The notes below the pieces were generated by a model. The model did no database searches. It was not told where the DNA came from and worked only from the letters and a program-made list of their open reading frames with translations. DNA of 506 nt from Escherichia coli (GTDB taxonomy: Bacteria > Pseudomonadota > Gammaproteobacteria > Enterobacterales > Enterobacteriaceae). The DNA is taken from NCBI RefSeq assembly GCF_003334255.1, contig NZ_QOWU01000230.1; one strand, given 5' to 3'. Positions within the stretch are counted from its first letter, which is position 1; each line of letters begins with the position of its first letter. Of the stretch, positions 1 to 506 are shown in pieces. The position numbers were made by a program, and so were the translations under genes.

Positions 1-5
1 CAAAT

Positions 6-34
6 GCCTGATGCGCTACGCTTATCAGGCCTAC
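6..34 (+). repeat. REP palindromic unit, Z2-type (copy 1)
   Basis: gcctgatgcgctacgcttatcaggcctac: 7-bp outer stem gcctgat/atcaggc (6-12 with 24-30), small internal mismatch, 2-bp inner stem with 3-nt loop, then the CTAC tail typical of REP. Matches the Z2 PU consensus as I recall it. Confidence 0.85.
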
Positions 35-51
35 AGATTCTTGCGCCATTC

Positions 52-85
52 GTAGGCCGGATAAGGCGTTCACGCCGCATCCGGC
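52..85 (-). repeat. REP palindromic unit, Y-type (copy 1), inverted relative to the Z2 unit
   Basis: The - strand reads gccggatgcggcgtgaacgccttatccggcctac: 7-bp outer stem gccggat/atccggc, 2x2 internal loop, 4-bp inner stem ggcg/cgcc with tgaa loop, CTAC tail. Matches the canonical Y PU / REP consensus as I recall it. Confidence 0.88.
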
Positions 86-98
86 AATGGTGACAAAT

Positions 99-127
99 GC
101 CTGATGCGCTACGCTTATCAGGCCTAC
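99..127 (+). repeat. REP palindromic unit, Z2-type (copy 2)
   Basis: Identical to 6-34, shifted by 93 bp. Confidence 0.85.
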
Positions 128-144
128 AGATTCTTGCGCCATTC

Positions 145-178
145 GTAGGCCGGATAAGGCGTTCACGCCGCATCCGGC
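145..178 (-). repeat. REP palindromic unit, Y-type (copy 2)
   Basis: Identical to 52-85, shifted by 93 bp. Confidence 0.88.
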
Positions 179-191
179 AATGGTGACAAAT

Positions 192-220
192 GCCTGATGC
201 GCTACGCTTATCAGGCCTAC
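192..220 (+). repeat. REP palindromic unit, Z2-type (copy 3)
   Basis: Identical to 6-34, shifted by 186 bp. Confidence 0.85.
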
Positions 221-237
221 AGATTCTTGCGCCATTC

Positions 238-271
238 GTAGGCCGGATAAGGCGTTCACGCCGCATCCGGC
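238..271 (-). repeat. REP palindromic unit, Y-type (copy 3)
   Basis: Identical to 52-85, shifted by 186 bp. Confidence 0.88.
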
Positions 272-284
272 AATGGTGACAAAT

Positions 285-313
285 GCCTGATGCGCTACGC
301 TTATCAGGCCTAC
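285..313 (+). repeat. REP palindromic unit, Z2-type (copy 4)
   Basis: Identical to 6-34, shifted by 279 bp. Confidence 0.85.
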
Positions 314-330
314 AGATTCTTGCGCCATTC

Positions 331-364
331 GTAGGCCGGATAAGGCGTTCACGCCGCATCCGGC
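331..364 (-). repeat. REP palindromic unit, Y-type (copy 4)
   Basis: Identical to 52-85, shifted by 279 bp. Confidence 0.88.
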
Positions 365-377
365 AATGGTGACAAAT

Positions 378-406
378 GCCTGATGCGCTACGCTTATCAG
401 GCCTAC
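378..406 (+). repeat. REP palindromic unit, Z2-type (copy 5)
   Basis: Identical to 6-34, shifted by 372 bp. Confidence 0.85.
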
Positions 407-423
407 AGATTCTTGCGCCATTC

Positions 424-457
424 GTAGGCCGGATAAGGCGTTCACGCCGCATCCGGC
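424..457 (-). repeat. REP palindromic unit, Y-type (copy 5)
   Basis: Identical to 52-85, shifted by 372 bp. Confidence 0.88.
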
Positions 458-470
458 AATGGTGACAAAT

Positions 471-499
471 GCCTGATGCGCTACGCTTATCAGGCCTAC
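471..499 (+). repeat. REP palindromic unit, Z2-type (copy 6; the window ends 7 nt after it, inside the linker)
   Basis: Identical to 6-34, shifted by 465 bp. The sequence stops at 506 within the tail-to-tail linker. Confidence 0.85.
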
Positions 500-506
500 A
501 GATTCT

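Follow-up and report, generated by a model that had tools for sequence, protein, structure and literature searches.

A perfectly identical REP23/"yahH" repeat array on an Escherichia coli orphan contig, most likely a product of assembly

The window analyzed here, i.e., the whole 506-nt stretch of E. coli DNA at its full length, is composed of nothing but a 93-bp repeat unit in five full copies and one 41-nt partial copy. We consider the perfect identity of these copies most likely a product of assembly, in which a closed cycle of the assembly graph was walked for five laps and the walk was cut at branch points. The window would then be an orphan contig that stands for the REP23 or "yahH" array between yahG and yahI in a short-read draft. 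The finding is an ordinary one: the element, its name, its phantom open reading frame and its copy-number polymorphism are already published, and the type of artefact is familiar.

Structure of the array and nature of its unit

Tandem Repeats Finder reports positions 1 to 506 as a single tandem array with a period of 93, 5.4 copies, 100% matches, 0% indels and a score of 1012. By direct comparison, base i equals base i+93 throughout the window, whose length resolves into 5x93+41 nt or 5.44 repeats of the unit, and a repeat search of the window returned four 227-nt copies spaced 93 nt apart that are each 100% identical. The count of five full copies and one partial copy with zero substitutions or indels given in the first-pass annotation thus agrees with both Tandem Repeats Finder and the base-by-base comparison, and the periodicity is far beyond chance. 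No sigma-70-like promoter or intrinsic-terminator-like sites are found in the window, which carries the following features:

1-506, no strand: array of the 93-bp "A" unit of the REP23/"yahH" BIME-2, five copies and 41 nt, recognized by its periodicity and by the same unit in yahG-yahI arrays
6-34, minus strand: z2-type REP, reading GTAGGCCTGATAAGCGTAGCGCATCAGGC on the minus strand and forming on the plus strand an iREP that ends in CTAC (pattern coordinates, 7-bp outer stem, MFE hairpin)
99-127, 192-220, 285-313, 378-406 and 471-499, minus strand: further copies of the z2-type REP
52-85, plus strand: y-type REP with 5' GTAG, GTAGGCCGGATAAGGCGTTCACGCCGCATCCGGC (pattern coordinates; hairpin with a 2x2 internal mismatch)
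145-178, 238-271, 331-364 and 424-457, plus strand: further copies of the y-type REP
35-51 and every 93 nt, no strand: 17-nt linker AGATTCTTGCGCCATTC from CTAC to GTAG, with variant sites 36, 42, 44 and 49 in finished genomes
86-98 and every 93 nt, no strand: 13-nt short linker AATGGTGACAAAT from the y REP to the next z2 iREP, with variant sites 87 and 93
2-505, minus strand: stop-free frame (ESVGLISVAHQAFVTIAGCGVNALSGLRMAQ)n, the "YahH" frame
3-506, minus strand: second stop-free frame
1, no strand: start of the contig at unit position 1, directly 3' of variant site 93, where unit A has A and unit B has G; the graphs predict an entry vertex of the cycle here
506, no strand: end of the contig at unit position 41, directly 5' of variant site 42 (T in unit A, C in units B and V), a predicted exit vertex of the cycle
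55-124 and again 148-217, 241-310, 334-403 and 427-496, plus strand: match to Rfam naRNA4 (RF02564), 78 bits against a gathering score of 59.5

As far as its sequence tells, the 93-bp unit is a BIME-2 made of one y REP (at 52-85) and one inverted z2 REP (at 6-34 on the minus strand), where the short form of the Z hairpin is taken to be z2 after the Bachellier consensus. The inverse orientation is apparent in each unit from CTAC at 31-34 and GTAG at 52-55, and both REPs fold as the expected hairpins with outer stems of 7-8 bp and internal mismatches (MFE fold, z = -4.2). The copies follow each other in tandem with a period of 93, 5.4 copies and linkers of 17 and 13 nt; in all finished genomes that were inspected the unit is extragenic, lying between the stop codon of yahG and the start of yahI, and unit-level maps show 1 to 6 units there. 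BIME-2 elements are defined by inverted z2 and y REPs in multiple tandem copies that are well conserved within a locus and variable in number between strains (Ton-Hoang et al. 2012, PMC3333891; Nunvar et al. 2010, PMC2817692). They are bound and cleaved by DNA gyrase and bound by Pol I (PMC2817692, PMC3333891), and TnpA-REP assembles tandem BIMEs in vitro (PMC3333891). The window resembles the BIME-2 family of Gilson, Bachellier and Hofnung in its inverse pair of y and z2 with GTAG and CTAC, its short linker, its tandem copies and its extragenic site, and no structural difference separates the two; its one excess over finished genomes at yahG-yahI is that more than five copies are perfectly identical.

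The five plus-strand matches to the naRNA4 covariance model score 78 bits each and thereby exceed the threshold of 59.5, while the minus strand of the window stays below it with 53.9 bits. In the alignment, the y hairpin is near-identical to the first (Y) hairpin of the naRNA4 consensus, and the z2 REP aligns with the second hairpin of the model but is 7 nt shorter. Like the REP325/naRNA4 array, which has a period of 100 and 5.8 copies that are 96% alike, the window consists of tandem Y-linker-Z hairpin pairs that lie inside an operon. Its unit differs from REP325 by the 7 nt missing from the Z hairpin and by its score of 78 bits compared to 95-111 bits for REP325. The two arrays also differ in strand: in the K-12 yahG-yahI spacer the naRNA4 matches lie opposite to the direction from yahG to yahI, whereas those of REP325 lie on the operon strand. 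The naRNA4-sense strand is thus antisense to the flanking operon for REP23 and sense for REP325, and by this strand placement the host operon of REP23 would not give rise to RNA in the orientation of the model, as that of REP325 does (yjdM to yjdN).

The REP23 locus in finished genomes

Arrays related to the window are present in all 5,426 complete E. coli genomes, with the best matches lying between yahG and yahI, where PGAP annotates the best-matching open reading frame as "YahH" or "hypothetical protein". Among 100,044 species-representative genomes, neither the exact 93-nt unit nor a 200-nt pattern of two A units and more (AA+) found a match, so that this is a lineage-specific E. coli sequence. 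We mapped the arrays in terms of the window's own unit (A); a unit B with five differences from A at positions 42, 49, 70, 87 and 93, where A itself has T42, T49, T70, A87 and A93; the first unit on the yahI side (V); and a truncated unit at the yahG end (A'), whose sequence departs from the repeat after position 86. The A unit occurs base for base in the yahG-yahI arrays of K-12, H1827/12, EC931, N921, FDAARGOS_943 and Sakai and always adjoins variant units in these six arrays. Four of the maps read as follows:

K-12: V-B-A-A', longest perfect run of A 179 nt
H1827/12: V-B-A-B-A-A', longest perfect run of A 179 nt
EC931: V-V'-B-A-A', longest perfect run of A 179 nt
N921: V-B-A-A-A', longest perfect run of A 272 nt

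Further variants at positions 36, 42, 44, 49, 51 and 54 are found in FDAARGOS_943, Sakai, OkiPb01695 and GPT24-02. The first-pass annotation had stated that natural copies usually differ at a few positions; this is true of whole arrays in finished genomes, whose self-identity is 95-98%, but not of all neighboring units, which can be identical (the A-A pair of N921 and the A*-A* pair of L022).

The window shares its period, REP types, linkers and open frames with REP23/"yahH" (b0322 of K-12; X002 in EHEC). It differs from finished REP23 arrays, which are mosaics with flanks, in presenting 5.4 perfect copies without flanks. Its best matches among the 5,426 complete genomes reach 98.0% over 506 nt, 98.2% over 372 nt and 98.6% over 279 nt. 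All of these genomes lack a run of three A units or more, and the longest perfect run of A in finished genomes is the 272 nt of N921, corresponding to at most 2.9 perfect copies.

The yahG-yahI spacer is a true VNTR locus. The earlier suggestion of a VNTR therefore holds for the real locus, where finished genomes carry roughly 1 to 6 units between conserved flanks, and the proposed comparison of array length across strains gave flank-to-flank spans of 1021, 929, 842, 742 and 694 bp, with some longer, i.e., classes about one unit apart (evenly spaced sample of the 5,426 genomes). About one in four finished genomes of this sample has a K-12-type array. The spacer of K-12 measures 421 bp, K-12-like and N921-like spacers span about 420-515 bp, and an arrangement such as V-B-A5-B-A-A' would come to about 0.9 kb. 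That BIME-2 copy number varies between strains has been published in general terms (PMC3333891, PMC2817692). At the level of individual units, duplications are evident from the (B-A)2 of H1827/12, from the A-A of N921, and from an A*-A* pair in two recent drafts, L022 and L024, in which both copies carry a private G77A change. In addition, a scan of metagenomes yielded a single contig, OATN01000477.1, which contains a perfect A-run of 390 nt (A-A-A, 3.8-4.2 copies) with both flanks present, though on a different variant background that has its entries at 56 and its exits at 73 and by which it was rejected as the source of the window. Gain and loss of REP23 units would proceed by unequal recombination or slippage, to which strand transfer by the RAYT (TnpA-REP) possibly adds.

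Contig ends, sibling contigs and the origin of the perfect identity

The window is the entire contig NMMT01000159.1 of the draft GCA_002467805.1 (506 bp, identical as reverse complement), which is all repeat and has no unique flank. An exact search with the 168-aa stop-free translation returned one record only, NMMT01000159.1 over the range 1-506, and the product is seen in four samples; our search for literature mentioning the accession numbers found none. We built de Bruijn graphs with k=33-77 from real finished loci of the K-12, H1827/12, EC931 and N921 types and found all 93 periodic k-mers of unit A present in them, which yields a closed A-unit cycle. In K-12-type arrays this closure is limited to k of at most 87 because the A-A' stretch measures 179 nt. 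Over k=33-77, the cycle can be entered only at positions 1 (A/G) and 50 (C/T) and left only at positions 41 (C/T) and 86 (A/T). The window starts at entry 1 and ends at exit 41, so that both of its ends fall on branch vertices, for which the chance expectation is about (2/93)^2 = 0.05%. Its interior crosses the other branch vertices, 50 and 86, five times each without a break, and these unbroken passages identify the contig as a resolved walk of the assembler, not a unitig or a single read.

These observations suggest a simple mechanism. Where an A unit is followed by A-like sequence so that the stretch reaches at least 179 nt, all 93 periodic k-mers would be supplied and would close into a cycle of 93 nodes, around which the contig would be a five-lap walk. 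This walk would begin after site 93, the point of access from a B unit, and break off before site 42, from where a B or V unit can be reached. We infer that the assembler was graph-based and used a k of 86 or less, or an equivalent, and that the lap count was its choice. SPAdes-like handling of loops may restrict such unrolling to roughly the insert size. With the window, orphan contigs and unrolled cycles of short-read de Bruijn assemblies share the lack of flanks, the ends on branch vertices and siblings that differ in laps only, and the length of the window is near the typical 500-bp cut-off, as for other repeat-only orphan contigs.

If the contig is a walk from entry 1 to exit 41, sibling contigs should have lengths of n x 93 + 41, and we computed the corresponding partial products. 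Orphan contigs of 227, 320 and 413 bp were indeed found in other NCBI drafts of 2017, each longer than the last by one whole lap:

n=2, 227 bp: NLGT01000173.1, at least 20 samples
n=3, 320 bp: NJWK01000397.1, 4 samples
n=4, 413 bp: NOMG01000151.1, 6 samples
n=5, 506 bp: the window, 4 samples

Exact-product searches for contigs with n=6 (599 bp) and n=7 (692 bp) returned no record. The 413-bp contig was compared base by base and matches the window in the phase of its start and end, while the phase of the 227- and 320-bp contigs follows from their exact length together with the exact predicted product. As a positive control for arrays anchored in their flanks, the V-B-A2-A' product of the N921 type was retrieved in 49 blocks, for the most part from long contigs with yahG and yahI. 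No record was obtained by exact-product search for V-B-A^n-A' with n=3, 4 or 5 or for V-B-A-A-B-A-A', though short reads cannot anchor a run of at least 365 nt to its flanks and missing anchored arrays with n of three or more are hence expected under an artefact and a real expansion alike.

Some points speak against a pure artefact. The lap count varies between assemblies, from 2 to 5, and contigs of the longer classes, with 4-6 samples each, are seldom seen despite the great abundance of K-12-type arrays. Were graph topology alone the cause, they should be far more frequent, so that the lap count may follow coverage or read pairs; it may in this way track a truly expanded run of A units. Real expansions of this kind exist: N921 and many drafts have 272 nt, and OATN01000477.1 has 390 nt.

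The first alternative is that the array is real and arose by a very recent amplification to at least five perfect A copies between B-type junctions (B-A5-B or similar) through unequal crossing-over, replication slippage or RAYT-mediated strand transfer, an origin that we regard as possible but rather doubtful. A run longer than the reads would then have been assembled into a separate contig comprising the maximal perfect stretch, with its copy number roughly correct, and 5x93+41 is exactly the maximal perfect stretch between G93 and C42 in B-A5-B. The unit and block duplications of H1827/12, N921, OATN01000477.1 and L022/L024 agree with such an event, as do the strain-variable number of BIME-2 units and the ability of TnpA-REP to build tandem BIMEs in vitro (PMC3333891), and the series of orphan contigs declines with n (at least 20, 4, 6, 4, 0 and 0 samples) as a natural VNTR could. 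Against it stand the zero of 5,426 finished E. coli genomes with three or more consecutive A units, the lack of any recorded flank-anchored product with n=3-5 or A-A-B architecture, the fivefold crossing of vertices 50 and 86 as the sign of a resolved walk rather than direct read evidence, and the common date of the four example assemblies, all from 2017, which hints at one pipeline. Were the amplification real, a minority lineage of E. coli would possess a fast-expanding spacer with at least five identical REP23 units, whose number could alter attenuation between yahG and yahI in a dose-dependent manner, and the orphan series of 2 to 5 laps would roughly reflect true allele lengths in drafts. 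Even so, it would add a modest new allele to a VNTR that is already known, not an element of a new kind.

Of the three origins that the first-pass annotation had offered without preferring any (recent amplification, ongoing homogenisation, and an assembly or synthetic artefact), the assembly artefact is thus the best supported, given the missing flanks, the ends on branch points and the siblings with 2, 3 and 4 laps. Recent amplification is borne out on a smaller scale by the perfect runs of 272 and 390 nt but finds no finished genome with at least three A units in a row to match it. The zero substitutions lose their value as a sign of homogenisation, since repeated passage through one graph cycle makes the copies identical by construction; for the same reason, neither the absence of substitutions nor the copy number of 5.4 tells anything reliable about the genome.

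Another explanation for the identity, which we consider very improbable, is that yahH is a genuine gene encoding 31-residue protein repeats, with selection or conversion acting on the protein to maintain their identity. It can point to two stop-free frames on the minus strand, to the YahH or hypothetical proteins annotated by PGAP, and to ribosome footprints on yahH/X002 in EHEC (PMC4765031). Yet open frames need nothing more than a period divisible by 3 (93 nt, 31 codons) and a unit that lacks stops in two minus-strand frames, which accounts for the open frame and for the annotations alike. The unit consists of two canonical REP palindromes with GTAG and CTAC and matches a REP-derived Rfam model, array length ranges from 1 to 6 units with annotated starts and frames differing between strains, and the window offers no start or stop context. 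A search for homologous proteins with the 168-aa repeat peptide found only four short YahH-like products. Earlier work had equated yahH/X002 with the BIME element REP23 of K-12, and its annotation was withdrawn because of the repeat (REP) structure despite the footprints in EHEC (Neuhaus et al. 2016, PMC4765031). We therefore rejected a coding repeat as the cause of the identity on account of the REP palindromes, the variable length and the lack of start or stop context.

A synthetic or cloned construct or a contamination, e.g., a designed REP multimer, would be compatible with perfect identity and missing flanks but is hardly credible and was rejected on indirect grounds, as the sequence is a contig of a whole-genome draft assembly, its unit is base for base the natural K-12 chromosomal unit, natural variant sites explain the phase of both ends, and the pattern recurs with different lap counts in several independent assemblies.

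With assembly as the preferred origin, a caution applies: a contig that consists of repeats alone and derives from a graph cycle is unusable for inferring homogenisation, recent amplification or a VNTR allele, and the window accordingly gives no reliable VNTR allele of the locus. The series of n×93+41 lengths and the map of variant sites could in turn serve to flag such artefacts and aid a flank-anchored typing of the yahG-yahI spacer.

Likely role of REP23 between yahG and yahI

The K-12 array is located inside a co-directional cluster of the form yahF-yahG-[REP23]-yahI-yahJ. For REP325, recent work described a partly Rho-dependent attenuation of the downstream gene together with a stabilization of the upstream mRNA (Harris et al. 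2026, bioRxiv 10.64898/2026.03.23.713779). The same study detected no measurable nucleoid compaction by REP325, contrary to Qian et al. 2015 (PMC4550694), so that HU binding and nucleoid association are disputed even for this array. Both HU binding and the activity as terminator and stabilizer were measured for REP325 alone and not for REP23. By analogy, REP23 is probably an array of hairpins that attenuates read-through into yahI and protects the upstream mRNA, and this local role as terminator and stabilizer is our best guess for the element. Liang, Rudd and Deutscher are said to have found in 2015 that REPs lying no more than ~15 nt from a stop codon lower the translation of the gene upstream of them. 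In the K-12 array, the first REP stem begins 13 nt after the stop codon of yahG, a spacing that would fall within this range.

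Adjacent identical units in natural arrays

Two assemblies carry the yahH array in a form that includes a pair of identical neighbours:

Locus positions 1501-1890 in L022 (GCA_052260415.1) and L024 (GCA_052256445.1): array V-B-A*-A*-A', with V and B variant units, A* the 93-bp unit A carrying G77A, and A' the truncated terminal unit on the yahG side

Both adjoining A* units share this private G77A relative to unit A, which is silent in the YahH frame, and the pair is a natural example of neighbouring copies being identical that originated either by mutation followed by duplication or by conversion.

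Repeat fragments at unusual sites in assemblies

Three further sites lie in assemblies of E. coli XL1-Blue, BL21(RP) and Rosetta2-DE3:

L001 3001-3471, within NZ_CP081007.1 (XL1-Blue "complete" chromosome) 4,647,681-4,654,151: yahH array fragment B-A-B-A
NZ_CP084683.1 (BL21(RP)) 4,168,615-4,168,745: REP-containing spot
NZ_CP083274.1 (Rosetta2-DE3) 4,487,845-4,488,006: REP-containing spot

The XL1-Blue fragment is sited close to the end of its record, and its neighbours are truncated IS1, IS2, RHS, DNA-packaging gene and ISAs1 pieces together with four tRNAs; the region looks like unplaced repeat contigs strung together into a chromosome of finished status. The BL21(RP) and Rosetta2-DE3 spots, in assemblies of two laboratory strains, are unusual brief REP-bearing sites that fall under features annotated as a "phage tail tip protein" or a "hypothetical protein"; the entire 506-nt window aligns there as five overlapping pieces on just 130-160 bp.

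Reading frames and the yahG stop codon

The array has stop-free frames on the minus strand:

Window 2-505 and 3-506, minus strand: two stop-free frames through the array
L005 (the K-12 yahF-yahG-[REP23]-yahI-yahJ locus) 3770-4090: YahH frame
L005 3742-3787: region of the yahG stop codon and first REP stem

Two frames remain free of stops across the whole array because its period equals 31 codons, and the starts and frames of YahH as annotated by PGAP vary among strains, giving products of 98, 106, 129 and 160 aa. In EHEC, ribosome footprints have been found on the YahH ORF (PMC4765031). Translation through the REPs may have an effect of its own, with suppression of Rho-dependent attenuation as one candidate.

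In K-12, 13 nt separate the yahG stop codon from the start of the first REP stem. Liang, Rudd and Deutscher (2015) reportedly described an effect on translation of REPs near a stop codon, and the yahG spacing is close enough for such an effect.

Strand of the naRNA4 matches

Rfam naRNA4 matches were found at two loci:

L005 3812-4067, minus strand: yahG-yahI spacer, antisense to the flanking operon
L021 (REP325 locus) 7806-8382, minus strand: REP325, sense to yjdM->yjdN

The matching strand is antisense to the operon in the yahG-yahI spacer but operon-sense in REP325, so the Rfam family detects BIME pairs whether or not the strand is transcribed.
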